32,000 nt of DNA from Xylanibacter ruminicola 23. GTDB taxonomy: Bacteria > Bacteroidota > Bacteroidia > Bacteroidales > Bacteroidaceae. The notes beneath the pieces are model-generated. The model saw only the letters and a list, made by a program, of their open reading frames with translations. It was not told the DNA's origin and did not search any database. Numbering within the stretch: the first letter of the stretch is position 1; each line of letters starts with the position of its first letter. Made by a program: the position numbers and the translations under genes. Shown piece after piece: positions 5,591-25,449 of this stretch. The DNA is taken from the NCBI RefSeq assembly GCF_000025925.1, contig NC_014033.1, positions 1,080,001-1,112,000 on the forward strand, read 5' to 3'.

Positions 5591-5821
5591 CTACAGGTAG
5601 ACTTCCATGCCGTTGAGCATGAAGATACAGCACTCGCGAGTCTGACGGATCTGATTAGAATCGAGGAGTTTGAACTTGCGTGTGCCTTTGTAGTGGTCGT
5701 ACTTGATACAGATACAGCGGTGCCACTCCTGGATCTCGCCTTTAGATGTCCATAGACGGATATCGACAGGCTCAGGACGGTTGAGAATCAGCCGGGCTGT
5801 GGTAATGTGGATACTATTCAT
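5591..5821 (-). CDS. Hypothetical protein (76 aa)
   Basis: ORF overlaps the stop of the upstream 5818-6837 gene by 4 nt (operon-like). No recognised motif. Confidence 0.5.
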   Translation of the reverse strand: MNSIHITTARLILNRPEPVDIRLWTSKGEIQEWHRCICIKYDHYKGTRKFKLLDSNQIRQTRECCIFMLNGMEVYL

Positions 5822-6837
5822 GGGAGAAACTCGTTTTGTTCCGCATAAGTCCAGGTGAACTTCAAGCGGATGGGGTTAGAATTATTATCTGATACTTCTG
5901 ATGAGGTATCTGAAATTATGACTGGAGCGAAGACTCCGTCAGCAACTTCTCGAGTGATTTCCTGGGAAGAGAGAAGCTGAGTAAGGAACTGTGCTTCGGA
6001 TAGTGTAAGTGGTGCTGTTTCCACTTCGTGTTTGACTTTGACGGAAGTGTCGTAATAAGCAACCTTATTACCGCATATCGCTTCAGAACGGTCGATCTCC
6101 GTTTTTGAAGTAGTAGCGCCGAAAAGGCAAACCGTTTCCCAAAGATTAAAATTACCTTTGAACTGGAATGTATCAGATGGAGCGGTGGGTGAGAAATATA
6201 TATTGAACTCGCGCTCCCCTATTCTATAAAAGACCCGATGTATGGTGGCGTTGTAAATGCCACTAAGCGCCAACAGATTCTGGAACCGCGCATAACTGGC
6301 CTCAGATGCGATGATTTTGGGTGTGTCGGACTGTTTATTGCCGAACGTGACTGTTGATTTGAGCATCGACTGTACTGATGGCATGTTGTAATAGATATCG
6401 CAATAGTTTGAACTCTGCTGATATGGCTGGGCATAGTTGTATAGCGTAAAGGGGCATGTTTGTGATAGCAATGCACTTTTGCGTGTAGTGAGGAAAGCGC
6501 CCAAAAGTGCTTGTTCTGCGCCTTTAAGTGATTTCAAATGACTGTATACTACCTTGATGACACCCGATGTGTAGGTAAAGTTCTCGTAGTCCTTGACATT
6601 AAGGACGAACGAGGCGATGGCCAGCTTCTTTTGCAACATAGCTGACTCGACGATAGACTGGATGTCACGTACATATGCCTTCAAGCCGTAGATATAGTAC
6701 GCTGAGGAAAAGACTTCCACCTCGTCGATGCTTATAGTGACAGTGACTAGCGGTGTGAGCGATTCTATCTCCACCTCTTCAGGCAAGTCAGCTGTGAGGC
6801 ATATGGAGGAAAACTTTGTATTGATAACGGTGGCCAT
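5818..6837 (-). CDS. Hypothetical protein (about 339 aa)
   Basis: Long ORF. Start set to MATVINTK (6837) because a -7 box TATCTTTG (rc of about 6851-6858) overlaps the upstream ATG. Confidence 0.6.
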   Translation of the reverse strand: MATVINTKFSSICLTADLPEEVEIESLTPLVTVTISIDEVEVFSSAYYIYGLKAYVRDIQSIVESAMLQKKLAIASFVLNVKDYENFTYTSGVIKVVYSHLKSLKGAEQALLGAFLTTRKSALLSQTCPFTLYNYAQPYQQSSNYCDIYYNMPSVQSMLKSTVTFGNKQSDTPKIIASEASYARFQNLLALSGIYNATIHRVFYRIGEREFNIYFSPTAPSDTFQFKGNFNLWETVCLFGATTSKTEIDRSEAICGNKVAYYDTSVKVKHEVETAPLTLSEAQFLTQLLSSQEITREVADGVFAPVIISDTSSEVSDNNSNPIRLKFTWTYAEQNEFLP

Positions 6838-7054
6838 ATCTTTTTTCTGCAAAGATACAATTGGGCGGTGGGCGGGGAAAAGACACGAAAAGATGTTTAA
6901 ATTCGGCGTAACATTGTTTAATCTGCGCTAAATAATGTAGAATGAACAAAAAATGACGAAAAATAAACATCAATTCCGAAAGAAATGTATATCTTTGCAG
7001 TGGTTAAGGTTTATGGTTGATTAATTTAGTTTTTTAAGTAAATTTTTTCAGGAA

Positions 7055-8719: not shown

Positions 8720-10234
8720 TTATTGTACTGCAGATAAGAGTTTCTCCCAAATTTTGACCATTGCAAATGTATCTAGGCCGCAATATGCTAGTAATGCTTT
8801 CCTTGTTTTTGCCTGTTCCTCAGGATCCATAAACTGAATCTTTGGGAATATGGTCATTGCCTCGCTACCATTATGAACACAACCTTCTAGATTATGGTAA
8901 TCCAATGATGGATCGTTAGGGAATAAGGTAGGCAGTACTACCTTAATGGAGAACGAGCCTCCCATCGCTGGCAGGTAATACTGACCAGCAGCAAACGGGT
9001 CAAGTAAATCCTTGATGTTGTCTTTGATGTTCAGCAGATGCTCAGCCAGGTCAGGATACCACCCTGCCAGTTCTTTGATGCGCGTGCACTCAAAGGATTT
9101 ATTAAAGGCAAGGGTACATACATTCATAGGAATATCCTTGCATAGCTGCTCTGCCAAAGCTCTTCTTGGGTCGGAGCCAGAAATTCCCAGATGTTCTTTG
9201 TGTATTAGTTCACCACCTTCATTTTCAATGATATGCAGTGAATACTGGAACGTAATCTGCTGGTAAACCTTTGTTCCTTCAAACTCTGGAACAACCTGTT
9301 GTATAGTTTCAAAGTCCAGAAAATACAATGGATAGGTCAAAGTGTTCAAGAACTCTTTAATTTTGTCTGGCTCAATGTGTGGTTTATTGGCTAATGCGCT
9401 TTCTATCTGTATTCGCCTCACAGGAGTCAGCTTCTCATTCTTAACATCATTGTATGATATTATACCCTGACGATAATACTTCAGCTTGTCTGAGAAGCGC
9501 ATACGATAAAGGTCGAATACTGATGGGGATGGAATGTGTCGAGAGCAGTATTTGAAGAAACCGCAGTCGTATGGAGCCTTACATCCTTCCCAGATATCCT
9601 GCTCGGGCTCTTCGCAGCTTTGCAGGAGTTTTAAAGCAGCAGTTTGTCTTGCTTCCACCTGAGCATATTCGTCGGCTATCATTTCAGAAACATCGTTGAT
9701 AACGAACAGACGCTTCAAATCAAGTTCGCCCTCTCTTACATAGTCTGAATTAAGGCAAACCAGATATGTGCCAGTAACGTTGATTCCGCATTTTTCGAGT
9801 ACCCATTTCTGATAGGCGATATCTGGCAGGAATTTGCCCAGTTTAGCTGGTTTACCATCAAATTCAGGATAGCTAACACTCTTTACTTCATAGATGGCAT
9901 ATCCATGCTCTGTGCGGTGAAGTATATCCACAGCACAGTAGTTGCCTTCGAAAGAGAATGCAGCTTCACATATATTGTCTTGGCCTTCAGCTATCAAATT
10001 CTTGGTGTTTTGAATCATAGCAGACAAATCAAGACTTCCATCAGCTCGCTTTACTGTAACATCCACATAGGGACCAAGGACACCTTTGGCAAGATTTCCG
10101 ACTTCCGTACCTTTTTCAAAGCGCCCTTCAGCAGATGGGTCGATCACTTCTTCCTCTGGCTTATACACGCTCATCCATAAGCACTTGGGGCACTGACAAT
10201 ACTTAGCGTACTTCGACTTTGATAGCTGTTTCAT
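8720..10234 (-). CDS. DUF2779-family protein: N-terminal Cas4-like PD-(D/E)XK nuclease plus C-terminal DnaQ/RNase-H-like exonuclease
   Basis: N-terminus LSKSKYAKYCQCPKCLW. Nuclease core AVDILHRTEHGYAIYEVKS. C-terminal YFLDFETIQQVVPEF...ITFQYSLH (DxE exonuclease motif). Its start lies 2 nt after the WYL gene stop. Confidence 0.8.
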   Translation of the reverse strand: MKQLSKSKYAKYCQCPKCLWMSVYKPEEEVIDPSAEGRFEKGTEVGNLAKGVLGPYVDVTVKRADGSLDLSAMIQNTKNLIAEGQDNICEAAFSFEGNYCAVDILHRTEHGYAIYEVKSVSYPEFDGKPAKLGKFLPDIAYQKWVLEKCGINVTGTYLVCLNSDYVREGELDLKRLFVINDVSEMIADEYAQVEARQTAALKLLQSCEEPEQDIWEGCKAPYDCGFFKYCSRHIPSPSVFDLYRMRFSDKLKYYRQGIISYNDVKNEKLTPVRRIQIESALANKPHIEPDKIKEFLNTLTYPLYFLDFETIQQVVPEFEGTKVYQQITFQYSLHIIENEGGELIHKEHLGISGSDPRRALAEQLCKDIPMNVCTLAFNKSFECTRIKELAGWYPDLAEHLLNIKDNIKDLLDPFAAGQYYLPAMGGSFSIKVVLPTLFPNDPSLDYHNLEGCVHNGSEAMTIFPKIQFMDPEEQAKTRKALLAYCGLDTFAMVKIWEKLLSAVQ

Positions 10235-10236
10235 CG

Positions 10237-11730
10237 TTATTTCTCGTTTAAATAGTTTTCGATTATTTCTGATTTAAGCGCTCTGCGCACTACGTCTCGG
10301 GTAAATGGGCAACCATCTACATATTCTTTTGGGTATGCGTTAGCCATTTCCAGTAGTCCATTGTATAGTTCACGCACCACATCCTTGCATCGTGCAAATC
10401 CTTTGAAAGGCAGGCTTTCCTTACTTACTCGGCTATTAAGAGTAACTGTGATATCCATCATATCGCCAACCTTCTTCAGCTCTATCTTAGTAGGCTCCTC
10501 TTCTTCGCCCAGTTCGATTACAGTCCTGGGATGATTTACTATTCTCTCCAGGCAAGTACTAATGTAACTCCACTCTATGCCCAGGTTTTCGATAGAATCT
10601 GTCATAATCATCGTTCCCAAGCTTATGCGATAGACGATGCATTTCCAATCATTGCTATCATTATGCAGATAGTTGAATGCGAATAACTGCGGCTCTAAGT
10701 CTTCTATATTCAGGCTATCACCTTCTACATTTTTATATGATTGTTTACACCACTCAAGACGCTCCAGCATCTCGTCGCGAAACCATTCAGGTGATTTAAC
10801 CACGAGACGGTCGCCATAGAACATCAGTTCCTGTATTATTTCGTAGTTTAACATCACATCTAGCGATACCTTGATGTTTCTTTCGCCCTCTATCTCAAGC
10901 TTTTGTGTTTCGCTGATGGGATACGAATATAGATAAGGATACAATGAGATATCTGCCCATAGCTCGATGTGCTCCACCGTTTTTTCAGGTGGCACCGTAA
11001 CACCTACCAGATGTTTGAAATATTGCTTAAACGATGTTTTGGTGGCTCGGTATTTTACCTCATTGTTCTCCTTTACAGCACTCATGCAAATCAGCGGATA
11101 AGCCTCAATCTTATCGCAGCCTTCCTGCTGTGCCATCAGATACCAGCGACGCCAGTACTGTTTCAGATAATATGGATGTAAAGTAATCGTTTCTGCATCG
11201 CGAAAATCCTTTCTATATTCCACATCTACCACCTGTCGATTGCGTATAGCTTTGAATAGTGGCATAAGGAATTCTGCATCCCATGGCGTTCCACCTTCAA
11301 AGCGTGCTATCTCTTTCTGCTTACTCATGATGTTCTGGTCAAGACGAGTAAGCATCTGGTCGATCCAGCCAAACTCCGACATACCCTTGAATCCCTGCAA
11401 CAGACTACGTACCTCTTGCAGCTTCTCAATCTCATTCTCCGTCAACTCACGGTTATATATCGAGTCGAATCCGTCGCGATAGCGGTAATAGCGTTTCTTG
11501 TGTCTGTCTTCCCATACGATTCCCTCCTGTCCAAACACCTTAAAGAACTTGGCATTCATCTCGGTAATATCCTGACTAAAGGTAGTTCTCGACTGGATAG
11601 GCAGCATTCCTCTATCCTCCAGCTTCCTGTTTACGATAGCCATCAACTGTTCGCGTGTATATTCACGTCCAGTACCAAAGCACTGATCGTAAATCATTTC
11701 TCGCATTGCATAGTCCTTCGTATTTGCCAT
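10237..11730 (-). CDS. WYL-domain transcriptional regulator (wHTH-WYL-WCX) with an extra C-terminal domain of about 150 aa
   Basis: N-terminal wHTH (MANTKDYAMREMIYDQ...). WYL core VDVEYRKDFRDAETITLHPYYLKQYWRRWYLMA. Start set to MANTK (11730), downstream of the -7 box at 11759-11766. Confidence 0.8.
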   Translation of the reverse strand: MANTKDYAMREMIYDQCFGTGREYTREQLMAIVNRKLEDRGMLPIQSRTTFSQDITEMNAKFFKVFGQEGIVWEDRHKKRYYRYRDGFDSIYNRELTENEIEKLQEVRSLLQGFKGMSEFGWIDQMLTRLDQNIMSKQKEIARFEGGTPWDAEFLMPLFKAIRNRQVVDVEYRKDFRDAETITLHPYYLKQYWRRWYLMAQQEGCDKIEAYPLICMSAVKENNEVKYRATKTSFKQYFKHLVGVTVPPEKTVEHIELWADISLYPYLYSYPISETQKLEIEGERNIKVSLDVMLNYEIIQELMFYGDRLVVKSPEWFRDEMLERLEWCKQSYKNVEGDSLNIEDLEPQLFAFNYLHNDSNDWKCIVYRISLGTMIMTDSIENLGIEWSYISTCLERIVNHPRTVIELGEEEEPTKIELKKVGDMMDITVTLNSRVSKESLPFKGFARCKDVVRELYNGLLEMANAYPKEYVDGCPFTRDVVRRALKSEIIENYLNEK

Positions 11731-11758: not shown

Positions 11759-11796
11759 CAAAGATACAAAAAATCTGTTCACCTAAAGCGAACAGA
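11759..11796 (-). promoter_or_regulatory. Promoter-operator cassette A (drives WYL and DUF2779 genes)
   Basis: Plus strand caaagata-N7-tctgttc-acctaaagc-gaacaga. On the minus strand this is TCTGTTC-N9-GAACAGA-N7-TATCTTTG. Confidence 0.75.
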
Positions 11797-11815
11797 TAAT
11801 ATTTTTTTTAAAATA

Positions 11816-11858
11816 GAGCTGGCCGCCATACTCAAAAACGTCAAGTGGGTGCCAGCTC
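11816..11858 (-). ncRNA. Hairpin element H1 (terminal element of RNA array 1, terminator-like)
   Basis: 8-bp closing stem GAGCTGGC/GCCAGCTC with inner helices. Followed on the minus strand by TATTTTAAAAAAAA. Paralog of H2; both share ggccgccatactc...caagtggg. Confidence 0.55.
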
Positions 11859-11860
11859 CA

Positions 11861-11909
11861 ACAGAACTCGTTCCCTCAATAACGGGCATGCGATATTCTG
11901 TTTGTCTAA
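11861..11909 (-). repeat. E-family bulged hairpin, copy E1 (degenerate)
   Basis: ACAGAA/TTCTGT outer stem, inner CCC/GGG helix, conserved tail ttgtctaa (minus strand TTAGACAA precedes the hairpin). Confidence 0.5.
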
Positions 11910-11940
11910 CCATTTCAAAGAAATCTTTTCCTTATTAAAA

Positions 11941-11981
11941 GGCTGGCCGCCATACTCGATAATGCCAAGTGGGAGCCAGCC
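11941..11981 (-). ncRNA. Hairpin element H2
   Basis: 7-bp closing stem GGCTGGC/GCCAGCC plus inner CCA/TGG and CTTG/CGAG helices. Followed on the minus strand by TTTTAAT. Confidence 0.5.
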
Positions 11982-12022
11982 CCAATCTGCACTTAGCCGC
12001 ACCAATTGCGGCAGCCACAGAT

Positions 12023-12120
12023 GTAGATGGAAGTAAGCGACAGAATCGAACTGTTACTGAAAGCCTTGCGGCTTGCCCACCTTTACCATACATCGTGGTT
12101 CTACTTGATCTTCCATCTCC
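12023..12120 (-). ncRNA. tRNA-like element T2 (T-arm, D-arm, GNRA-capped central hairpin, encoded CCA, no anticodon loop)
   Basis: On the minus strand: 11-bp outer stem GGAGATGGAAG/CTTCCATCTAC with one mismatch. D-arm-like CCAC-[..TGGTA..]-GTGG. AAGCC-GCAA-GGCTT hairpin. T-arm ACAG-TTCGATT-CTGT. 3' region GCTTACT-T-CCA. Confidence 0.55.
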
Positions 12121-12172
12121 GACAGGACTCGCGCCCTTACATTGGGCATTGCGATATCTTGTTTGTCTAAGA
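12121..12172 (-). repeat. E-family bulged hairpin, copy E2
   Basis: gacaggactcgcgcccttacattgggcattgcgatatcttgtttgtc. Stacked helices CTCGC/GCGA and GCCC/GGGC with a 7-nt loop and a 3-nt bulge. TTAGAC tail. Confidence 0.55.
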
Positions 12173-12182
12173 CTATAAGAAA

Positions 12183-12263
12183 GGCGGATTGGCGAAGGAG
12201 TTGAACCTTGCAATATACTGCCATTACAGGAAGCCCCGCTACCGCTGCGACCATCAATCCGCC
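12183..12263 (-). ncRNA. tRNA-like element T1 (extended acceptor-like stem, D-arm, canonical T-arm, no anticodon arm)
   Basis: On the minus strand: GGCGGATTG...CAATCCGCC 9-bp terminal stem. D-arm TCGC-AGCGGTA-GCGG. T-arm AAGG-TTCAACT-CCTT. The central region forms only a 3-bp stub GCT-[TCCTGTAAT]-GGC. Confidence 0.55.
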
Positions 12264-12281
12264 TTTTTTACGATGATGTTG

Positions 12282-12319
12282 CAAAGGTAATGTTTATATG
12301 TTCAGCCATAGCGAACAGA
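12282..12319 (-). promoter_or_regulatory. Promoter-operator cassette B (drives RNA array 1, no ORF)
   Basis: caaaggta-N7-tatgttc-agccatagc-gaacaga, the same architecture as cassette A. The next 450 nt downstream on the minus strand are non-coding structured RNA. Confidence 0.7.
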
Positions 12320-12333
12320 CTGAAATTTTTTAT

Positions 12334-12825
12334 TTACATAGTATTTATTTCCGCCAATTCTTCAGGTGTATGATGCTGCATGTCATAGACAAGAGAATCG
12401 TCAGAATAGCCATTCACTATATCCTTAGCCTGTTCTTCAGTAAGAAATGGTTTTCCTTTATCTTTGATATTCAACAGAGCTTTTAAGAAATCCTGGCGAT
12501 AGTGTTCGAAAATCTCTGTAGTATAAGGAAGACTTCTGACGCTATAGTATAACTTCTTGAATTCCTCAACGGTATATATCTTACCATCTATGCACGACAT
12601 GGCACAGGCTTTAGGAAATGTGCACCAGCGTTTCAGTTCAAGATTAACAAGTAAAGATTTCTGTCCTTCTATCTGTTCAACACAGAGAAAACACTTATCC
12701 GTCAAATACTTGATAAACTCTTCCAGTTCTTTTTCGTCTTTACATCTAACTGCATAAGGAAGAATACAACGCCCTTTTCCCATGTAGTCTTCATTTAACT
12801 CTTTATAATATACTTCTTCAAACAT
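12334..12825 (-). CDS. Hypothetical protein (163 aa)
   Basis: ORF 12 nt downstream of the 12838-13179 gene, same strand. No motif recognised. Confidence 0.6.
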   Translation of the reverse strand: MFEEVYYKELNEDYMGKGRCILPYAVRCKDEKELEEFIKYLTDKCFLCVEQIEGQKSLLVNLELKRWCTFPKACAMSCIDGKIYTVEEFKKLYYSVRSLPYTTEIFEHYRQDFLKALLNIKDKGKPFLTEEQAKDIVNGYSDDSLVYDMQHHTPEELAEINTM

Positions 12826-12837
12826 AGTCCGATTCTT

Positions 12838-13179
12838 TTAAGATTGCATTTCTCCAAGTAAATAGTAAACGATTTGAGCTTTAATATACTCTTTACTGTT
12901 TTCCTCGTAGGTAATCAACTTACCAGATCTATTTGAAAACAGTTCTATCTCTGCTTTTTCGATAGCGAACCAATGAGAACTCTGCCCAGCATTGAGCTTC
13001 AAAGCATCATAGTGACGAGGCTGTAAGATACCATCGACATCAATAACGTATCCGTCTTCGTCCAAATCACAAAACAAAGAATTTGTTTCTGGGCGAATCT
13101 CACGAGTGAAAATATTAGTTTTTCCACTTATGATTTCATTCAACCTATGTTGATTTGTATCTAGCTGTATAACTTTCAT
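12838..13179 (-). CDS. Small ASCH/PUA-like domain protein (113 aa)
   Basis: Paralogous by eye to the C-terminal domain of the 13809-15008 protein (shared pattern I..GK....T.EI.P.N......L..DG.V....GI.Q.R.YDA). Start lies 19 nt downstream of the cassette C transcription start region. Confidence 0.55.
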   Translation of the reverse strand: MKVIQLDTNQHRLNEIISGKTNIFTREIRPETNSLFCDLDEDGYVIDVDGILQPRHYDALKLNAGQSSHWFAIEKAEIELFSNRSGKLITYEENSKEYIKAQIVYYLLGEMQS

Positions 13180-13204
13180 GATTCTGATATTTAAAATTTC
13201 GGAA

Positions 13205-13242
13205 CAAAGGTAAGCTATATTTGTTCAGCCAAAGTGAACAGA
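13205..13242 (-). promoter_or_regulatory. Promoter-operator cassette C (drives 12838-13179 and 12334-12825)
   Basis: caaaggta-N7-tttgttc-agccaaagt-gaacaga. Confidence 0.7.
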
Positions 13243-13262
13243 TAAATAATTTTTCAAAAAGA

Positions 13263-13304
13263 GGCAGGACTCGCGCCCTCACATTGGGCATTGCGAGCCC
13301 TGCC
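13263..13304 (-). repeat. E-family bulged hairpin, copy E3 (terminator of RNA array 2)
   Basis: ggcaggactcgcgccctcacattgggcattgcgagccctgcc. About 16 bp of stacked helices. Followed on the minus strand by TCTTTTTG. Confidence 0.6.
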
Positions 13305-13343
13305 CTAACTCCACGACCTCTGTCATTGCCATTGTGGAGAGAA

Positions 13344-13414
13344 AGGATTGGCGAAGGAGTTGAACCTTGCAATATGCCATAGAAGACCTCGCTACCGATG
13401 CGACCATCAATCCT
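13344..13414 (-). ncRNA. tRNA-like element T1-prime (paralog of T1)
   Basis: The 5' 22 nt (one substitution) and 3' 31 nt match T1, including the D-arm TCGC-ATCGGTA-GCGA and T-arm AAGG-TTCAACT-CCTT. Central stub GTC-[TTCTAT]-GGC covaries with T1 (GCT...GGC). Confidence 0.55.
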
Positions 13415-13425
13415 TTTTTTCAAAA

Positions 13426-13468
13426 GGCAGAGCTCGCGCCCTCAATACGGGCATTGCGATGCCCTGCC
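13426..13468 (-). repeat. E-family bulged hairpin, copy E4 (leader hairpin of RNA array 2)
   Basis: ggcagagctcgcgccctcaatacgggcattgcgatgccctgcc. On the minus strand it starts about 15 nt after the predicted start site, is preceded by TTAGACA and is followed by TTTTGAAAAAA. Confidence 0.55.
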
Positions 13469-13488
13469 TGTCTAACCCTATTTTTCTG

Positions 13489-13526
13489 CAAAGGTACCAT
13501 ATATGTGTTCAGGCAAAGCGAATAGA
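13489..13526 (-). promoter_or_regulatory. Promoter-operator cassette D (drives RNA array 2, no ORF)
   Basis: caaaggta-N7-tgtgttc-aggcaaagc-gaataga (one half-site degenerate). Abuts the stop codon of 13527-13802. Confidence 0.65.
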
Positions 13527-13802
13527 TTACATTTTTTCTTTTAAATGGTTCTGATATGCATCCAAAATGGCCGACGAAGCCATGTCACCAATAAGGAACT
13601 CTGGTTCACCTAAATCTTTCAAAAGAGATTCTACATTCTCGCGCTCACCAGTATAGAGCCAATTATTTCGAATCCACAATCCTAGGCCAAAGTGAAAGAA
13701 AACCATATCTTCTGCTTCCACTATTTGCTTTTTCTCTTCCAGTGTTAGCCTCTTATCCAGACATTTCCAAGCCTCCGCTGTTGTTTTAGGACACCTTGCC
13801 AT
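13527..13802 (-). CDS. Hypothetical protein (91 aa)
   Basis: ORF 6 nt downstream of the ASCH gene. Motif FHFGLGLWIRNNW noted but not confidently assigned. Confidence 0.55.
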   Translation of the reverse strand: MARCPKTTAEAWKCLDKRLTLEEKKQIVEAEDMVFFHFGLGLWIRNNWLYTGERENVESLLKDLGEPEFLIGDMASSAILDAYQNHLKEKM

Positions 13803-13808
13803 ACGAAT

Positions 13809-15008
13809 TTATATTTTATCACCTAAAACATAGTTCATAATACAGTCCGTATAATCGAGCTTTTCATCCTCTTCCTGTTCAGAATAGAGCTTATAATCAC
13901 CATATTCAGAATCCATATACATCACATCTGTATTATTAATCTGACACGTGTACGAATCTTCTTTGTTAGTGAACTGAATAGCGTCGTATCTTCTCAACTG
14001 CGGAATTCCATTAATTTCCTTTACTGTCCCATCTGCGTTTAAGATGAAAAACATACTCAAATTCTTTGGGGTAATCTCTTTTGTGAATGATGCCATTTTG
14101 CCTGTTGCAATATCCTTAAAAACATCTTTGTTAACTTTGAGTTTTAGAATATTGTCATTGCTATCAGCCATTTTAGGAATTTCCAACACATCGATTGTTT
14201 TTCCTCCACAGAAACTTTCAAATTCACCTTCTTCAATTTTCTTACCAAACATGAACTGTGCAACCATCCATGCAATTTCGTTGCCAGTAAAATCCATAAT
14301 GAAATAAGGCTTTGTTTCATCTTGTGGATCTGGGAGATTGTATATGCCAGATTCTTCAGCTAACTCAAAAGCCACATAACTATTGCCACAGAAAACTGTC
14401 ACAGTTTTAAATGACTTCATTTTGAATGCGTCATCTACACATAGTAGATCAGTCAAATAAGGAGTCAAATACAATTCTATCCCCCCAAAATCGCCAGCCT
14501 TAATCTTTTCGAATGTTTCCTTTGTACAAGGTATTTGCACCTCAGTTTCGTCTTCAGTAACATCAACATTCTCCAACTGTACTTGATGAGCAGGAGGCAG
14601 ATTGTTCTCATCCAAATCATAGTCGAAGAGGTTTAACTTGCCTTTCACGTCGAGTATTGGCTCATCAAACAACCATGCATCTTCTAGTTTCCATTTTATT
14701 GCACCAGCGTCAGCCCAAACAGAATCTACATCACCTTCTTCAAAACCAGTCACTGTAACATATCCAATAATGGCGCTTGTTGGCAATGTTTCTAGTTCCG
14801 GAATATTTCCAAAGCTTATTTGATTCTCAATACATGACTCCAGAGTTTCTGGAATTCCTGCATAGAAGTTCTTAGTAATTTTTTTAGAACTTGCGTGAAT
14901 CAGAATCCTTCTAGGAACCTGAGCTGCTTTCCAAGTTCTGTTCTCTACATCTTTAATACCTGCGCATACCAATGATGCCCAAGGCTGCTGAATTGACAAG
15001 GTTTTCAT
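13809..15008 (-). CDS. Multi-domain ASCH (PUA-like) protein
   Basis: N-terminus MKTLSIQQPWASLVCAGIKDVENRTW...RILIHAS is the classic ASCH signature. The C-terminal roughly 110 aa repeat the fold pattern of the 113-aa protein at 12838-13179. Confidence 0.75.
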   Translation of the reverse strand: MKTLSIQQPWASLVCAGIKDVENRTWKAAQVPRRILIHASSKKITKNFYAGIPETLESCIENQISFGNIPELETLPTSAIIGYVTVTGFEEGDVDSVWADAGAIKWKLEDAWLFDEPILDVKGKLNLFDYDLDENNLPPAHQVQLENVDVTEDETEVQIPCTKETFEKIKAGDFGGIELYLTPYLTDLLCVDDAFKMKSFKTVTVFCGNSYVAFELAEESGIYNLPDPQDETKPYFIMDFTGNEIAWMVAQFMFGKKIEEGEFESFCGGKTIDVLEIPKMADSNDNILKLKVNKDVFKDIATGKMASFTKEITPKNLSMFFILNADGTVKEINGIPQLRRYDAIQFTNKEDSYTCQINNTDVMYMDSEYGDYKLYSEQEEDEKLDYTDCIMNYVLGDKI

Positions 15009-15028
15009 AATTCTAAAGTATTTTGTTG

Positions 15029-15364
15029 TTATTTATCTCCGTACTTTTCTTTATTAAAGTCATGCTTTGCATGCTGATAGACATAGTTTATTGCCTTCTT
15101 CAACACATCTGCATCATTGCTCATTAGGTCGCCAAAAATGTCATCTTCTGGAACATACTTAATAATGTTACCTTTATAACCTACCATAAAATACAACCCA
15201 CTAGGATCATAAACTGGATGGAAAATTCCCTGATAGCATGAGAACTCAAATGCTACTTCACCATTCTCGTTCTCAATGCGCTTACGAGAGAAAACCTGGC
15301 CTTTAGAGGTTGTGATTTCAAGACTAAAGACCTTTTCAAAATCGATTATACCATTCTTTTCCAT
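15029..15364 (-). CDS. Hypothetical protein (about 111 aa)
   Basis: Start set to MEKNGII (15364) because the longer ORF's ATG overlaps the cassette E -7 box. Confidence 0.55.
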   Translation of the reverse strand: MEKNGIIDFEKVFSLEITTSKGQVFSRKRIENENGEVAFEFSCYQGIFHPVYDPSGLYFMVGYKGNIIKYVPEDDIFGDLMSNDADVLKKAINYVYQHAKHDFNKEKYGDK

Positions 15365-15388
15365 AACTATATATTTTAATTTTTTCGG

Positions 15389-15426
15389 CAAAGTTAAAGA
15401 TTATTTGTTCAGTCAAAATGAACAGA
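15389..15426 (-). promoter_or_regulatory. Promoter-operator cassette E (drives 15029-15364, the ASCH gene and 13527-13802)
   Basis: caaagtta-N7-tttgttc-agtcaaaat-gaacaga. Confidence 0.7.
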
Positions 15427-15559: not shown

Positions 15560-16618
15560 CTACCAACTGGGAGGCAATATGATATTCTTGACATCGTGAG
15601 CTTTTTTGAAGAGAGGTGAGATTTCTTCATCGGTGAAGCCGGCGATGCCGCAACCGATGCGGGTGACGAGGAACGTCAAGTTCTGGTGCTGCTTGGCGAA
15701 CTCGATGAAATCGTCGACGTAAGGACGGATGCTATCTACCCCACCTTGCATAGTGGGGATGGCATAGCTCTGACCCTGCAGACCGACACCTTGACCCATG
15801 ATGGCACCGAAGTGGCGATATGCAACATATGCTGCACCTCCGCCATGCATACCGCGAAGGTTTGAGCCGAAGACGAAAATCTCGTTTGGCTGGAGCGAAG
15901 TAATATGCTCCGGAGTAGTACGCTTTTCTTCCATAGTTCTTCTTTTCATGAAATCCATAGGTGCGGCACAAGGTGCTGCCTCTTCCAGTATAGGTTCGCC
16001 AACTATGCCGAACTCCGGCATAATTTCAGGCATGTCAAAGTCCATATCAAAGTATTGACGGAAATACGGTACGATGATGTCTTCCTTGATTTTCTTGTAT
16101 TTCTGTGATATGGCTGCAGGAGTCATTCCCATCTGGGCGGCAACATCCTTAGATTTGAAGCCCTGCAGGAGAATCATATCTATGATAAGTCGCTCCTGAC
16201 GGCTCATAGGAACATGGTCGCAGACATCTTCAACCATATGATTAAACTGCAGACGGAGATTACTCGAGACATCGAATGACTGGAGATAGTCCTCAAAGGT
16301 GATGCTGCCGTATTCCTTGCGGTACCATTTCAGAGCATCGAGGACTATGAAACGAAAGCCGTTGATAAGCCAGGTCTTTAGGGAAACGTTTGGGGAATGG
16401 TCCTCCAGTGGCTTCCAATCATGTTCCATCAGGAATATAGCATACTGATGGGCAAGTGAGAGGAAGTCCAGATTCTCTTTCTCATGAAGCTGATAACGCT
16501 GGTCGAAAATGTAATAGCCGACCTCACAATATCCGTAAAAATAGGTACGGATAATGTCGGCGTCGCCCTGGCGGAAGCCCCTTAGAATCTCCTTGTCTGA
16601 TAGTCGCCTATATGTCAT
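15560..16618 (-). CDS. Sigma-70/ECF-like factor fused to a C-terminal macro-like (A1S_2505-type) domain
   Basis: Region-2-like SLKTWLINGFRFIVLDALKWYRKEY. Region-4 HTH MSRQERLIIDMILLQGFKSKDVAAQMGMTPAAISQKYKKIK. C-terminal VFGSNLRGMHGGGAA...GLQGQSYAIPT...TRIGCGIAGF recalls the macro-domain glycine motifs and the family I remember as A1S_2505 phage non-structural protein. Confidence 0.6.
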   Translation of the reverse strand: MTYRRLSDKEILRGFRQGDADIIRTYFYGYCEVGYYIFDQRYQLHEKENLDFLSLAHQYAIFLMEHDWKPLEDHSPNVSLKTWLINGFRFIVLDALKWYRKEYGSITFEDYLQSFDVSSNLRLQFNHMVEDVCDHVPMSRQERLIIDMILLQGFKSKDVAAQMGMTPAAISQKYKKIKEDIIVPYFRQYFDMDFDMPEIMPEFGIVGEPILEEAAPCAAPMDFMKRRTMEEKRTTPEHITSLQPNEIFVFGSNLRGMHGGGAAYVAYRHFGAIMGQGVGLQGQSYAIPTMQGGVDSIRPYVDDFIEFAKQHQNLTFLVTRIGCGIAGFTDEEISPLFKKAHDVKNIILPPSW

Positions 16619-18521: not shown

Positions 18522-19469
18522 TTATGCCCACATACAATTAATTGTTATTATGGATGTTGGCATTCCTATTATTTGAATATCAAACTTCAAACTAGGTTCT
18601 ATTAATGTCGAAGCATTATGTATTCTAAAACTAAATTGCCAGCCATTATCCATGTATAATTCTGCAGTATTATTACTTTTAGGCTTTAATCCAAAAGAAA
18701 TAATTCTTGTTGGCAGTAACGATATTGGTATTTTTCTACTTGGCACCTTTGTCTTAGAAGCATGATTTAATGTACCTCGAAGATTAAATGCCATAAGTTG
18801 AGTCATTTTTGATGAATCTATACCAATAAGTTTATAAAAATCATATTTACCTAGTAAGTATTCAACCATACGAGAAGGAACCGTTTTATCTTTTTCATAA
18901 TCCTTGTTAATTTCTTTAATAAAAGCCTTTAACAAAGGAACATATACGGTTGATTCTTTATTAGGGAGAGCACTCCAAGCAATTTTACCCCTGTTTTTTA
19001 TCAGAGGGGCAAAAATTGGGGCAATTTCATCCCAATATGTTTTTGAGCATGGCATACCTAACCAACTATTGCCAAAGTCCAACACATTAGACAATCTACT
19101 ATGTTTAACAGCCAGATGGTTATGCTTTACACTTATACCTATTACCCATTTTACACTATCTCGAATAATTAGAATATCTCTAACATCACCAATAATTCCT
19201 TCTTTGTCAGATTGTAATCTTATTGTGAGTATATCCCCAGAATTATCTTCTATCATAGGTTCAAGCTCACGTAAAGTTGGAATAGCAGCCAATGCTTCCT
19301 TTTTCATAATCGTCTTAGTATTCTCGTCAAGACAATTCCAATTATTCATATCCTGTATAAGGTTGTTGTTGTTTGCTACAACAACAGACCTTATTTTAGA
19401 TATTTCTTCTTCGAGACATTTAACACATATGTATTCAAATGCTCTTCCGAGTTCGTCACTTTTTGGCAT
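18522..19469 (-). CDS. Type II restriction endonuclease, HaeIII-family-like (GGCC predicted)
   Basis: 315 aa. N-terminal GRAFEYICVKCLEE, which I recall as characteristic of the HaeIII REase family. 3-nt gap from the M.HaeIII-like gene. Confidence 0.6.
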   Translation of the reverse strand: MPKSDELGRAFEYICVKCLEEEISKIRSVVVANNNNLIQDMNNWNCLDENTKTIMKKEALAAIPTLRELEPMIEDNSGDILTIRLQSDKEGIIGDVRDILIIRDSVKWVIGISVKHNHLAVKHSRLSNVLDFGNSWLGMPCSKTYWDEIAPIFAPLIKNRGKIAWSALPNKESTVYVPLLKAFIKEINKDYEKDKTVPSRMVEYLLGKYDFYKLIGIDSSKMTQLMAFNLRGTLNHASKTKVPSRKIPISLLPTRIISFGLKPKSNNTAELYMDNGWQFSFRIHNASTLIEPSLKFDIQIIGMPTSIITINCMWA

Positions 19470-19472
19470 AAG

Positions 19473-20465
19473 CTAGAATTCTATAGCATCTTTAATCGCT
19501 AGGGCAATTTCATATGCAAGATTAACTGGAACAGCATTTCCAATCATCTTGTATGCATTGTCTACCTTGTCATAAATAAATTTAAAAGAGTCGGGGAAAC
19601 CTTGTACTCGTGCAACCTCTCGAACAGTCATTCTTCTATACAAATGCTCTTTCCCTTCAACAAATCTACAATCATTTGTGTCAAATTTAATCATCTTTGG
19701 AGCTTGTGGATGTAATTGGCATTGTCTTCCAGATGCCTGAACAGTAAAACCTTGTTCATCCCAAGCCTTAACTCTATTTCTACTCATATAAATTGTAGAA
19801 TAAGCGCCAATAAAATACTCATTGTTATTAATAGCCTCTGGATTATGATGGTTCTTTTCAAGTGCAGGTACTGCACTATCTTTTAAATCCCAAATAATAT
19901 CACGTAGTGTAATTTTTTTCTTATCATCACGTGTACTACCTTCTGGAAATTTAAAATCTATATTTAAATCATTTCTAAAACCAATATAAAATACTCTTTT
20001 TCTTTCTTGAGCTACTCCATAATCTTTTGCATTAACTAAAGTAAGAGAAACATTGTAGCCACTTTCCTTGAACATATTTAATATATTCTGAACGGCACCA
20101 GAATGTCTATCCGCAAGCATACCGCTTACGTTTTCTGCTAAAAAGAATTTAGGTTTTACTTCCTGTAATATTCTTATATAGTCAAAGAAAAGCTGACCTC
20201 TAGCATCTTCAATACCACGTAAAGAACCAGCTTCACTCCAAGATTGACATGGAGGTCCACCTATTATACCATCAACATCTTTAGGGAAGTCACTTTCCTT
20301 GATATTTCTAATATCACCCCTGATTAGCTTTGTTTTGGGGTGATTTGCTTCAAAAGTTTCCCAAATAGAGGGATCAAACTCGTTTGCAACAGGTACTTCA
20401 AATCCAGCTCTTTCAAAGCCAAGATCTAGACCTCCACAACCGCTAAATAAACTTATTACTTTCAT
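19473..20465 (-). CDS. DNA (cytosine-5)-methyltransferase, M.HaeIII-like (GGCC predicted)
   Basis: All C5-MTase motifs: [11 protein letters not shown] (I), [12 protein letters not shown] (IV), ENV (VI), [10 protein letters not shown] (VIII), [13 protein letters not shown] (X). The target-recognition region [19 protein letters not shown] and [14 protein letters not shown] closely tracks the M.HaeIII sequence as I remember it. Confidence 0.9.
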
Positions 20466-20474
20466 TTTTAAATT

Positions 20475-21335
20475 TTATATTTTATATTTTACTAGTTTTA
20501 CTTCTATTAAATCAGCTGTATTATTGGGGTTTTGAACAAAAGTATCTTCTATTGTAAGATTATCAATCCTTTGAGAAAGCTCTGACAATTCATCTATGTT
20601 CTCAAAAGAATTATACTTATCACTTGGTATAATAGCCATTAACTCAAAATTACTTTCATCATATCTGTATATATCGGCAAAACTACCTACTTTAAATGGA
20701 TGAGATATACCCCACATTCCCCTAGCTCTAAAAAAAGTTATTCTCAACGGGTCAACAGCATTTATATGCGCAAGTTCTTTGGTTTCTTCTAAATCTAATT
20801 CAGATGATTCTTCAATGCTTTGTTTCACACTATTAAAAACATTTTCATAACATTCTTTACTTGCACAATATACTGAACCATATACCAGGGCTAATGACTT
20901 TAAATTATTTTTCTTTTTTTCAACACAGCCAATGGCATATATTATATCTTTTACATCCCAATCTCCATTTTCTATTTCACGACAAGCCTTTGATATTTTA
21001 CTATCATTTTTAAACAAATGAGATTTGGGATAGCTACTATTTAAATTAATGTTTCCGATTGACTCAACTTTTTTCACTTCAATTGCAGCTCCTCTTTTAA
21101 GAACTGCATCTGGGGGATTATTCTTTCCACCGCCATATGACAAAGCCTCTGCACGCTTCCTTGTTTTGTCAACACCACTTAAACCAAGAGAATTGGAAAA
21201 AGCATCTTTAATATACTCCTCTAAAGGCTCTCCTAACGAATGTAAACGATTATTAGAATTAGGGGAATTTCCAATAACTCTTCTATTATCTTTAATTATA
21301 TTAATAATTGCAGTAATAATATTGTAATTGCTCAT
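20475..21335 (-). CDS. Second restriction-endonuclease candidate (PD-(D/E)XK; possibly NgoPII-family)
   Basis: 286 aa. PPDAVLKRGAAIEVKK fits a PD...(E)xK catalytic core. Size and N-terminal NIITAIINI...EPLEEYIKDAF resemble what I recall of the NgoPII family. 9-nt gap to the methyltransferase gene. Confidence 0.45.
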   Translation of the reverse strand: MSNYNIITAIINIIKDNRRVIGNSPNSNNRLHSLGEPLEEYIKDAFSNSLGLSGVDKTRKRAEALSYGGGKNNPPDAVLKRGAAIEVKKVESIGNINLNSSYPKSHLFKNDSKISKACREIENGDWDVKDIIYAIGCVEKKKNNLKSLALVYGSVYCASKECYENVFNSVKQSIEESSELDLEETKELAHINAVDPLRITFFRARGMWGISHPFKVGSFADIYRYDESNFELMAIIPSDKYNSFENIDELSELSQRIDNLTIEDTFVQNPNNTADLIEVKLVKYKI

Positions 21336-24560: not shown

Positions 24561-25292
24561 TTAACCAATGCGTAAGTGTTTAGTGTAGAAATCCTGCAGG
24601 GGGAAGTCTTTGTTAGGAATGAATTCTATGTCGTATGAAGTGGTGATGTGTATTATTCTGTCAATTGGAATCTTGGCTGCGCGCTTGTTCGTAGAGTCGT
24701 GACAAAGGAGATAATATTTCGGGCAGTCGAACATGATATAGTACGGATGTACAACAATAACTTCTTCAGCTTTTTTGTTTGATTTACAAGTAATGAGAGC
24801 TGGCGATTTTGAACGGATATGCTGGTAAATAGACTTGAATATTTTACAAGCAGATTTAGAAGGAGTTTTCTTATAAAGCACAATAGGTTCACTTTCGACA
24901 TCAACTTCAAGCATGTCAGAAAGCCTACGAGAAAGTGATTCGTAAACTAATGTACCTTGTATAGGGTCACAAAAAAGGATAGACATCAGAGCCGAATGAA
25001 GATGTTCTATCTCATCAAAAGTGAACGTATTTTTGAATATTGAATTACCGATTTGCTCATAACGATAATAGTTCTCATGACTGTGACGTTCTACGCGGAT
25101 TTTCCTTCGATACACATACCGGATTGTATCGATATCGTTTCTAATGGTGTTTGTAGAAACCGGCGGAAATCCGTTAGCTTCAAGTCCGTCATTTACTGCT
25201 TCCAACATCTCTTTTACTGAGCTTCCATGTTGTCTGTTTAATAGGCGGTCGATGATAATTTCTCGAGCCGCAGCATGTTTTGTATTTGCCAT
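24561..25292 (-). CDS. Short WYL-domain transcriptional regulator (243 aa), paralog of 10237-11730
   Basis: Same MANTK... wHTH N-terminus. WYL-like core EEVIVVHPYYIMFDCPKYYLLCHDSTNKRAAKIPIDRI. -7 box TAATTTTG (rc of 25332-25339). Confidence 0.7.
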   Translation of the reverse strand: MANTKHAAAREIIIDRLLNRQHGSSVKEMLEAVNDGLEANGFPPVSTNTIRNDIDTIRYVYRRKIRVERHSHENYYRYEQIGNSIFKNTFTFDEIEHLHSALMSILFCDPIQGTLVYESLSRRLSDMLEVDVESEPIVLYKKTPSKSACKIFKSIYQHIRSKSPALITCKSNKKAEEVIVVHPYYIMFDCPKYYLLCHDSTNKRAAKIPIDRIIHITTSYDIEFIPNKDFPLQDFYTKHLRIG

Positions 25293-25449
25293 TTTTGCTA
25301 TAATTAAATCTAATGTTCCGTAAACGAGATGCAAAATTATAAAATAAATATTCAATAATAACAGATACCATCTGAAAACAGAATGACATCGTGCACTTTT
25401 TCCGAAATATGAACTAAACTGTTACAAATTGACTGGAAAAGATGGCAAT

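Follow-up and report, generated by a model that had tools for sequence, protein, structure and literature searches.

A window of 32,000 nucleotides from Xylanibacter ruminicola 23 (RefSeq assembly GCF_000025925.1, contig NC_014033.1, positions 1,080,001 to 1,112,000; all positions given below without a locus name are those of the window) contains five copies of a 38-bp cassette, which behaves like a promoter with an embedded palindromic site. The cassette represents a conserved family of rumen and gut Prevotellaceae with one island per genome. As judged by comparison, the most likely candidate for binding the palindrome is a winged helix-turn-helix (wHTH)-WYL-WCX protein encoded in the island itself, and two of the five transcription units are predicted to produce tRNA-derived RNAs devoid of decoding ability. 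Taken as a whole, we consider it probable that the cassette combines a promoter with a binding site for a dimer of this WYL protein, and that this one protein co-regulates a compact regulon confined to the island.

Sequence and geometry of the cassette

All five copies are located on the minus strand and read TCTGTTC-N9-GAACAnA-N7-TAnnTTTG over 38 bp, of which the palindrome takes up 23 bp. Their coordinates, shared architecture and orientation had been given in a preliminary description of this DNA and were found as stated, as were the five transcription units behind them and the position of the first cassette (A) ahead of the WYL gene. A search for the palindrome pattern with up to two mismatches returned 11 strand-matches in the window, namely the five sites on both strands and one weak site, compared to 1.0 ± 1.08 in dinucleotide-preserving shuffles, none of 100 of which reached 11. 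With a position weight matrix (PWM) derived from the five sites, these score 51–58 bits, and the runner-up within the 32 kb reaches 3.3 bits. The nine-nucleotide spacer, described earlier as semi-conserved, is indeed partly conserved: its GCTTTG portion (positions 8–13), which is not fixed by the search pattern, shows 76–98% conservation among 126 unique homologous sites, and this conservation is asymmetric.

The placement of the cassette is promoter-like, with distances of mostly 20–40 nt to the start of an open reading frame (ORF) and of 9–20 nt to an RNA module. The -7 box TAnCTTTG, which agrees with the Bacteroidetes consensus TAnnTTTG (PMC7366714), is followed by CA (95% and 84% conserved; the CA is not fixed by the search pattern). 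From the definition of the -7 box, the palindrome extends from about -41 to -19 relative to the expected start site. The range of -30 to -8 proposed previously has to be shifted accordingly, but the -33 position is still covered, as had been suggested.

Both the half-site spacing and the distance to the -7 box are rigid. Exact TGTTC-Nx-GAACA palindromes occur 139 times with x = 9 and zero to three times for each other x from 5 to 13, which places the half-site centres 16 bp apart (7-9-7). TAnnTTTG is found at one single offset in 134 of these 139 palindromes, and three of the remaining five have either a degenerate box at the same offset or a contig gap alongside. No insertions or deletions between palindrome and -7 box are observed among about 110 unique cassettes despite a diverged linker sequence, the 7-nt linker being only weakly conserved (at most 0.55 bits at positions 26–30); in the more diverged locus L108 the linker measures 8 nt. 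An A-tract is located 6–12 nt 5′ of the palindrome.

As a promoter reference, 194 TAnnTTTG boxes located 5′ of ORFs and outside cassettes were taken from the same 0.69 Mb of DNA. In these ordinary promoters TTTG peaks 19–20 nt 5′ of the -7 box (12 and 14 cases, with one case at 17 nt), and 168 of them also lack a -33 TTTG. The cassette harbors a regular -7 box, but no TTTG at the canonical -33 spacing; its only TTTG in this region is positioned in the middle of the palindrome, 17 nt from the -7 box and hence 2–3 bp nearer than in the canonical arrangement. The central TTTG of the spacer (GCTTTGGCT on the minus strand) was rejected as a -33 box on account of this spacing. Altogether, the site resembles those of the WYL regulator DriD in that it overlaps the -35-equivalent, keeps an identical distance to the -10-equivalent (134 of 139) and lacks a canonical -35 element (TTTG at 17 nt).

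Distribution of the cassette family

In a scan of one genome per species the exact pattern was found in 18 places and never in more than one stretch per genome. Eight of these places belong to Prevotellaceae, including the cultured strain Xylanibacter ruminicola D31d with locus L019; the non-Prevotellaceae matches share no homology outside the pattern itself. A generalised pattern yielded 82 metagenome loci, mostly from rumen samples, and a weight-matrix scan about 150 sites of at least 30 bits in 76 Prevotellaceae or rumen loci, with five sites per locus at most. The Prevotellaceae sites adjoin homologs of the WYL, DUF2779, p163, ASCH and p120 genes of the window as well as RNA arrays, in varying order. 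Directly 3′ of the cassettes are found RNA modules (33 cases), WYL genes (31 of 90 ORFs, the commonest), genes of ASCH-related proteins (20), p120 (14), a 523-aa protein (fam3; 8), a 258-aa protein (fam4; 7), an HTH_3 protein (fam5; 5) and an M48-peptidase/TerB protein (fam6; 3).

The locus is a variable chromosomal island and not part of a phage, as the preliminary description had assumed. Phage origin was ruled out, since neither a search of 2.9 million viral contigs for the cassette pattern nor a blastn comparison of the region with the phage collection gave a match, and the WYL protein is encoded residue-for-residue on a 3.58-Mb chromosome contig of assembly GCA_019973335.1.

The WYL protein as candidate ligand

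The protein encoded behind cassette A matches the Pfam families WYL (2e-10) and WCX (1.3e-6), both above the curated cut-offs; for its N-terminal HTH no Pfam HTH match was obtained. In the AlphaFold2 (AF2) model (predicted local distance difference test, pLDDT, 77) residues 1–85 form three helices (4–18, 26–39 and 48–66) and a beta-hairpin wing (71–84), after which come a linker of three helices, WYL, WCX and an additional alpha/beta domain (about 350–497), so that both the domain order and the winged HTH of the wHTH-WYL-WCX class are present. In Foldseek about 345 residues, the N-terminus among them, align with DriD (5e-13), PafBC, BrxR (about 1e-6) and CapW, and a family profile ranks PafBC (4e-7) before DriD (about 5e-4), BrxR (2e-3) and CapW (0.29). 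The extra domain of this long form is confidently modelled and absent in BrxR, CapW and DriD; its Foldseek matches are weak (E 0.03–0.09) and comprise Whirly-like folds that bind single-stranded DNA or guide RNA (MRP1/MRP2, PBF-2) and a CdiI immunity protein.

A WYL gene is present in 16 of the 20 loci of at least 8 kb, and in most of the remaining ones the cassette lies at a contig edge. Loci retrieved by protein instead of motif, via WYL homologs (63–66% identity) or via a p163 homolog, likewise contain 3–4 cassettes, one of which precedes the WYL gene. Furthermore, a WYL ortholog of 55% identity, which is situated between epimerase and TonB-receptor genes and has no cargo, carries TTCGTTC-N9-GAACGAA 5′ of its true start.

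A second operator class, GTCC-N9-GGAC, shows a symmetric change in both arms and is found just 3′ of short-form (345-aa) WYL genes. With the predicted recognition helix SRNT the variant site occurs in six of six loci, and the loci L129 and L130 also agree; with SRTT (or SKAT), which goes with GTTC/GAAC operators, it occurs in one of 42. The short-form protein P0114 (locus L128), which retains SRTT, provides a control: its cassette is the canonical TCTGTTC-N9-GAACAGA. It is therefore the helix residue, and not the length class, that tracks the operator variant. This covariation is the strongest computational evidence that the WYL protein is the ligand. The protein had earlier been named as the obvious candidate ligand, and by co-occurrence, protein-first retrieval and helix-operator covariation with its control it remains the best candidate.

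The variant cassettes (TCTGTCC-N9-GGACrnA-N7-TATCTTTG; L009 3702–3739, L111 11071–11108, L129 and L130) are positioned 30–70 nt after the stop codon of the short-form WYL gene and head a gene of the Peptidase_S24 family (275–292 aa) or small ORFs. In L009, L031 and L035 a canonical GTTC/GAAC cassette is found ahead of the short-form WYL gene itself, which suggests a two-tier cascade between WYL paralogs.

The window contains a second WYL-type gene (24561–25355, minus strand), as had been described. It encodes a diverged paralog (22% identity, E 5e-14) that was missed by Pfam, has its true start at 'MANTK' (24561–25292, about 243 aa) and possesses a different recognition helix (VSTNTIRNDIDTI). 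In its upstream region (25332–25383) two direct TCTGTT repeats are located 5′ of a TAATTTTG box and may constitute an operator of its own. The weaker half-sites reported near position 25359 thus literally exist in the form of these repeats, but they do not make up a cassette (PWM -4.7).

Proposed mechanism and direction of regulation

According to the proposed mechanism, each cassette would combine a promoter of the Bacteroidota housekeeping type (-7 box TAnCTTTGCA) with the 23-bp site TCTGTTC-N9-GAACAnA, placed at a fixed distance from the box, and a dimer of the local wHTH-WYL-WCX protein would recognise this site via its N-terminal winged helix. The same cassette would drive the operon of the WYL protein and the DUF2779 nuclease and, besides the two structured-RNA arrays, two operons for small proteins that are uncharacterised or of the ASCH type; as all five units carry it, a single protein would co-regulate the regulon of the island. 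A unit that is gained, lost or rearranged would take its control element with it. From the analogous regulators DriD, PafBC and CapW we infer that the signal may be single-stranded nucleic acid sensed by the WYL domain.

With regard to the direction of regulation, our best guess leans slightly towards ligand-dependent activation of the DriD type. The dimer would then be placed over the -33 region in a fixed phase with the -7 box, and the carboxy-terminal domain of the RNA polymerase alpha subunit (alpha-CTD) would dock on the upstream A-tract. The reasons for this preference are the rigid offset despite the diverged linker, the mis-spaced TTTG, the upstream A-tract and the closeness of the protein to PafBC and DriD. 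The preliminary description had concluded that a bound dimer gates access of the polymerase, that is, repression of the BrxR/CapW type; the position of the site does not imply this, and the protein is closer to PafBC and DriD.

Repression by the same binder is nevertheless a serious alternative, whose probability we put somewhat below even. In this case a BrxR/CapW-type repressor would occupy the -33 region of five constitutive promoters and would be released by a ligand arising from phage attack or DNA damage. The points that weigh against activation are largely those that favour repression. The -7 boxes conform perfectly to the consensus and, since 168 of the 194 ordinary promoters lack a -33 TTTG, the core promoter is probably self-sufficient and may be active alone; if so, a dimer at about -41 to -19 would occlude the polymerase. 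The gene of the regulator itself bears an identical cassette, in line with the negative autoregulation that is typical of WYL proteins in defence islands, and the neighbourhood with restriction-modification and McrBC genes resembles BrxR/CapW contexts. In addition, the half-site spacing is the same as in BrxR operators (PMC9122601), and BrxR and CapW are among the full-length Foldseek matches. On the other hand, steric occlusion would not need the strict absence of indels in the about 110 unique cassettes. The protein is nearer to the activators PafBC and DriD both by sequence and by structure, its linker consists of three helices as in DriD, and the A-tract lies directly 5′ of the site.

Further points weigh against a site bound by a WYL dimer in either direction of regulation. 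Everything said here on binding is derived from comparison. The helix-operator covariation may go back to few independent events, one or two, as the SRNT proteins form one short-form clade with possibly a single substitution; the short-form control with SRTT helps in this respect. The loci found by motif were all retrieved with a pattern of fixed geometry, a bias that spares only the secondary sites and the loci retrieved by protein. Finally, a symmetric dimer does not account for the strongly conserved, asymmetric GCTTTG spacer.

Other binders and other readings of the repeat

It is unlikely that another protein recognises the palindrome and that the WYL gene is mere cargo. The candidates are a sigma-like protein of 352 aa, an XRE/HTH_3 protein, a LexA-like S24 repressor or a factor whose gene is located elsewhere. 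The HTH_3 protein (fam5) heads cassette units at some loci, but these amount to only five of 90 cassette-driven ORFs. S24-family genes follow the variant cassettes and a UmuDC operon is located nearby in the window; however, the published Bacteroidetes LexA motifs are GGA-N5-TCC and CTAA-N5-TTAG (PMC8565304), by which a LexA/SOS box was ruled out for TGTTC-N9-GAACA. Moreover, the palindrome is kept beside a WYL ortholog in whose vicinity all of these genes are absent, and the variant form of the operator goes together with a residue of the WYL recognition helix.

The sigma-like gene (15560–16618, minus strand) is located directly 5′ of cassette E. Its product contains an extracytoplasmic function (ECF)-sigma-like region (TIGR02937, 8e-8, below the cut-off) and, at the C-terminus, an 'A1S_2505 family phage non-structural protein' domain (NF049995, 4.6e-44; phrog_2072). 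The preliminary description had offered it as an alternative binder. Among the loci of at least 8 kb it co-occurs with the cassette in the window only, and it was ruled out on these grounds both as binder and as dedicated sigma factor. In addition, a -35/-10 pair of the ECF type would need more than the 10 nt that separate GAAC from TA.

That the repeat is a recombination or mobility signal, such as an integron-attC-like element or a 'mobile promoter', we regard as very improbable. It would explain the shuffling of units in the absence of a dedicated regulator: unit order differs among species, each unit has its own cassette, and 7-9-7 inverted repeats resemble the core sites of tyrosine recombinases. 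Yet neither the window nor those protein-first loci that were annotated with Pfam revealed a site-specific recombinase domain, as would go with an integron cassette. The cassettes are oriented and spaced relative to the gene or RNA behind them as promoters are, and the site co-varies with a DNA-binding helix. Homologous 38-bp repeats could promote recombination passively.

Least probable of all is a transcribed hairpin serving as terminator or attenuator of the upstream unit, which a terminator scan flags at cassette A (hairpin followed by TTTTTTG): only copies with a T-rich linker are terminator-like and B to E are not, a short, AT-rich stem encloses a loop of 9 nt, the outer arms are often non-complementary (59 of 110 at positions 2/22), symmetric covariation is weak at positions 2/22 and missing at 3/21, and the RNA units already have terminator hairpins of their own at their ends (Z, and Y4 with its U-run).

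Structured RNA arrays

The two stretches without protein-coding cargo behind cassettes B and D are composed of repeated modules (Table 1). ARAGORN and Rfam at the gathering score call nothing in 11797–12281 or 13243–13488, which rules out tRNA genes and known RNA families there. The best Rfam match is a sub-threshold one to tRNA-Sec (20 bits, cut-off 47), due to the 9-bp acceptor stem; DUF2815-RNA is also matched below threshold. The modules X, T2 and Y represent three structured-RNA families not contained in Rfam, and a literature search found no description of the tRNA-derived ones.

Table 1. Features of the cassette island in the window, grouped by kind; (-), minus strand.
Feature	Positions	Strand	Description
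Cassette A	11759–11796	(-)	TCTGTTC-GCTTTAGGT-GAACAGA-TTTTTTG-TATCTTTG; 28 nt 5′ of WYL start codon (11730); PWM 51.0 bits
Cassette B	12282–12319	(-)	heads RNA array 1; X module begins 20 nt 3′; PWM 56.3 bits
Cassette C	13205–13242	(-)	heads p113-p163 operon; ORF begins 26 nt 3′; PWM 58.1 bits
Cassette D	13489–13526	(-)	left arm TCTATTC; heads RNA array 2; Y module begins 14 nt 3′; PWM 55.2 bits
Cassette E	15389–15426	(-)	heads p111(p120)-ASCH399-DUF6794 operon; ORF begins 25 nt 3′; PWM 52.2 bits
WYL regulator	10237–11730	(-)	wHTH-3-helix linker-WYL-WCX, 497 aa; Pfam WYL and WCX, AF2, Foldseek; proposed palindrome ligand
DUF2779 protein	8720–10234	(-)	DUF2779 / Cas4-like PD-(D/E)XK nuclease family; Pfam DUF2779 2.4e-44; PADLOC Cas4 2.7e-5
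p113 and p163	12334–13179	(-)	p113 12838–13179, homologous to C-terminal part of ASCH399-family proteins; p163 12334–12825
ASCH operon	13527–15364	(-)	p111/p120 15029–15364; ASCH-domain protein, 399 aa, 13809–15008; DUF6794 13527–13802
X1	12183–12263	(-)	tRNA-shaped; 9-bp acceptor-like stem, D-like arm, capped hairpin for anticodon arm, T-loop UUCAACU
Y1	12118–12170	(-)	conserved hairpin UCGC-AAU bulge-GCCC-7-nt loop-GGGC-GCGA
T2	12024–12119	(-)	second cloverleaf; GNRA tetraloop (GCAA) at anticodon-arm position; T-arm ACAG-UUCGAUU-CUGU
Z1	11937–11983	(-)	long hairpin, then U-run, inside array 1; probably intrinsic terminator or attenuator
Y2	11857–11909	(-)	second Y hairpin copy, array 1
Z2	11811–11859	(-)	long hairpin, then U/A-rich run; probably terminator of array 1
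Y3	13423–13475	(-)	Y hairpin, 5′ end of array 2
X2	13342–13416	(-)	short X form; acceptor stem with three compensatory pairs relative to X1 (AAAGG/CCUUU vs GGCGG/CCGCC)
H and Y4	13260–13340	(-)	end of array 2; H hairpin 13307–13340, Y4 hairpin with U-run 13260–13308

In the X modules an acceptor-like stem of 9 bp is combined with a D-like arm of 4 bp and a T-arm whose loop reads UUCAACU or UUCGAGU. The position of the anticodon arm is taken by a hairpin that is capped by GAAA, UUCG or variable 6-nt loops and is lacking in the short form. In 26 X sequences 95% of cells pair, a value reached by none of 500 shuffles, whereas slid registers give 28–51%; the outer acceptor pairs interchange between GC, AU and GU. 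As the variable hairpin is misaligned by MAFFT, this arm was judged by inspection of 27 unique sequences and excluded from the pair counts. T2 is a four-arm cloverleaf with a GCAA/GUAA tetraloop or a covarying alternative stem at the anticodon-arm position; 95.3% of cells pair, double compensatory changes are seen in nine of 20 pairs counted out of 21 predicted and, again, none of 500 shuffles reaches the observed value. In the Y hairpin, present in four copies, the basal stems covary (96% of cells pair, six pairs with double changes), and the apical part UCGC-AAU-GCCC-loop-GGGC-GCGA is nearly invariant. Acceptor, D and T arms are accordingly present in both X and T2, but a seven-nucleotide anticodon loop is not. 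With the anticodon arm replaced by a capped hairpin, X and T2 are predicted to be incapable of decoding.

Between T2 and Z1 (11985–12025, minus strand) an extra hairpin GCCGCA-AUUGG-UGCGGC is found outside the X, T2, Y and Z models, and in L127 (9744–10000) a non-coding stretch of about 250 nt behind a cassette has an H-type match only. Further RNA module types probably exist. In an X copy of L028 (1578–1689) the T-loop contains an insertion of about 30 nt (GGTTC-TTTGCAAGCAAAGCGACCAAAGGTCGAGCG-CAACTCC), which hints that the loop tolerates, or is a platform for, an extra hairpin.

Nine of ten viral matches to the X/T2 core patterns turned out to be chance matches in coding sequence. The tenth is a genuine X-type RNA (nhmmer 4e-10) on the phage-like contig IMGVR_UViG_3300037455_000283 (L122, 4300–4375, minus strand), which also carries a terminase-like ORF (5704–6993) and a TnpB-like ORF (9632–10777); ARAGORN calls no tRNA at this position. 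Upstream of the RNA an ordinary TATATTTG box is found and no TGTTC-N9-GAACA palindrome. In this single case the phage might carry its own version of a regulatory or antidote RNA of the host.

Cargo proteins and neighbourhood

The DUF2779 gene begins 2 nt after the WYL stop codon and is thus part of the same operon. In the ASCH399 protein the ASCH domain is N-terminal. The p163 family is narrow and restricted to the cassette system; p163 matches nothing in PHROG, Pfam, PADLOC or NCBIfam, and its AF2 model (pLDDT 70.7) has no Foldseek match with E <2. Two assignments made by eye were not used: for fam4, read as an EVE-like domain with an HNH-like zinc motif, Pfam gives no match, and for fam3, read as a PUA-like domain with a nuclease, it gives a sub-threshold match to HSDR_N_2 only.

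Restriction enzymes of the HaeIII and NgoPII types, together with a C5 methylase, and UmuDC are encoded nearby in the window, along with many unannotated genes. The two endonuclease genes flank the single C5 cytosine methylase gene (18522–21335, minus strand) with no cassette 5′, an arrangement in which two GGCC-type endonucleases share one methylase. PADLOC detects no known defence system among the cassette-driven genes, and the nearby restriction-modification genes have no cassette.

A more far-reaching joint reading, which we put forward only tentatively and hold to be rather unlikely, is that of a Prevotellaceae-specific, WYL-controlled inducible island in which arrays of tRNA-derived cloverleaf RNAs (X, T2) lacking an anticodon loop, together with the Y hairpin, would be partners of the co-regulated effectors. 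If this applies, the RNAs might be an antidote or decoy, or a scaffold processed at its tRNA-like ends. The effectors would be the ASCH, other uncharacterised and nuclease-family proteins, with X, T2 and Y as the most conserved non-protein cargo, and the X homolog that a phage carries behind an unregulated promoter would be a mimic serving as counter-measure.

Comparison with known systems

WYL-domain regulators are increasingly seen as main switches of bacterial DNA-damage and anti-phage responses. The literature consulted yielded no characterised WYL regulator from Bacteroidota, whose promoters are unusual and for which few operators have been mapped. The locus offers a 23-bp candidate operator with five natural reporter promoters in 7 kb as well as a candidate specificity residue, T49/N49 of the recognition helix, that pairs with a one-base-pair operator change. 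The rigid fusion of site and -7 box could reveal how an activator or repressor works with sigma-ABfr polymerase, and the 38-bp cassette is possibly useful as a portable regulated promoter in Prevotella and Bacteroides engineering. The two tRNA-shaped RNA families without anticodon raise the question of what cells do with inducible non-decoding tRNA bodies.

Compared to an ordinary sigma-ABfr promoter (-33 TTTG, -7 TAnnTTTG), the cassette is alike in its perfect -7 box followed by CA, its short leader and its A/T-rich upstream region. It differs in its mid-palindromic TTTG 17 nt from the -7 box, as opposed to 19–20 nt in 26 ordinary promoters.

X and T2 share with tRNA the acceptor-like, D-like and T arms, the T-loops UUCAACU, UUCGAGU and UUCGAUU, and the stem covariation. 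They are distinguished from it by the hairpin at the anticodon-arm position, capped by GAAA, GCAA/GUAA, UUCG or variable 6-nt loops, and by a CCA that is not encoded. Unlike tRNAs and tRNA mimics (tRNA-Sec, the tRNA-like domain of tmRNA, YrlA Y-RNAs) they are arrayed with Y hairpins under a regulated promoter. In contrast to YrlA, the RNA presumably ends at the acceptor stem, its closed end being the anticodon arm.

BrxR and CapW belong to the same domain family as the WYL protein of the window. BrxR represses from inverted repeats of the types 11-5-11 and 10-5-10 (PMC9122601), and the distance of 15–16 bp between half-site centres is common to both systems (PMC9122601), as are a site on the regulator's own promoter with a second site inside the island and the restriction or defence neighbours. 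BrxR and CapW are, however, shorter (about 290 aa) and more distant by profile (BrxR 2e-3, CapW 0.29), and the BrxR operator lies 3′ of the -10 box and not over the -35 element. BrxR/CapW systems have one or two boxes, whereas at least five cassettes of rigid geometry are present here. The genes regulated here do not belong to any system known to PADLOC, and a recognised anti-phage system next to the regulator, such as the BREX or CBASS systems controlled by BrxR/CapW, was not detected among them.

A second comparison is with the WYL-domain activators DriD (Caulobacter), DdaA (Moraxellaceae) and PafBC (Actinobacteria), whose regulons span several promoters. These regulators and the WYL protein have in common the order wHTH-helical linker-WYL-WCX, a palindrome reused in several promoters including the regulator's own, and a site over the -35-equivalent at a fixed distance from the -10-equivalent (PMC13004042, PMC10853764). 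DriD sites overlap the -35 element at an identical distance from the -10 element, and DriD contacts the alpha-CTD (PMC13004042); the site of action of PafBC is at -26, and as many as 20 genes, both of DNA damage and of phage defence, are under the control of DdaA (PMC12392091). The differences concern the phylum and the promoter type (sigma-ABfr -7 box), the motif (TGTTC-N9-GAACA with a wider half-site spacing, as compared to CGAC-N7-GTCG and CGWCA-N5-TGWCG) and the extent of the regulon, which is one island without recognisable DNA-repair genes as opposed to genome-wide control. The long form with its extra C-terminal domain of 150 aa and the structured-RNA cargo are further differences, and in the present case activation is only a candidate mode.

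That a WYL regulator reuses one palindrome in several promoters, its own included, is established for DriD, DdaA, PafBC and BrxR. New are the lineage (Bacteroidota), the motif, the way it is rigidly joined to a -7 box in one portable unit of 38 bp, the confinement to an island with shuffling of units, the paired change of recognition helix and operator, and the structured-RNA arrays as cargo; of all these, the RNAs have the best claim to be new in kind.

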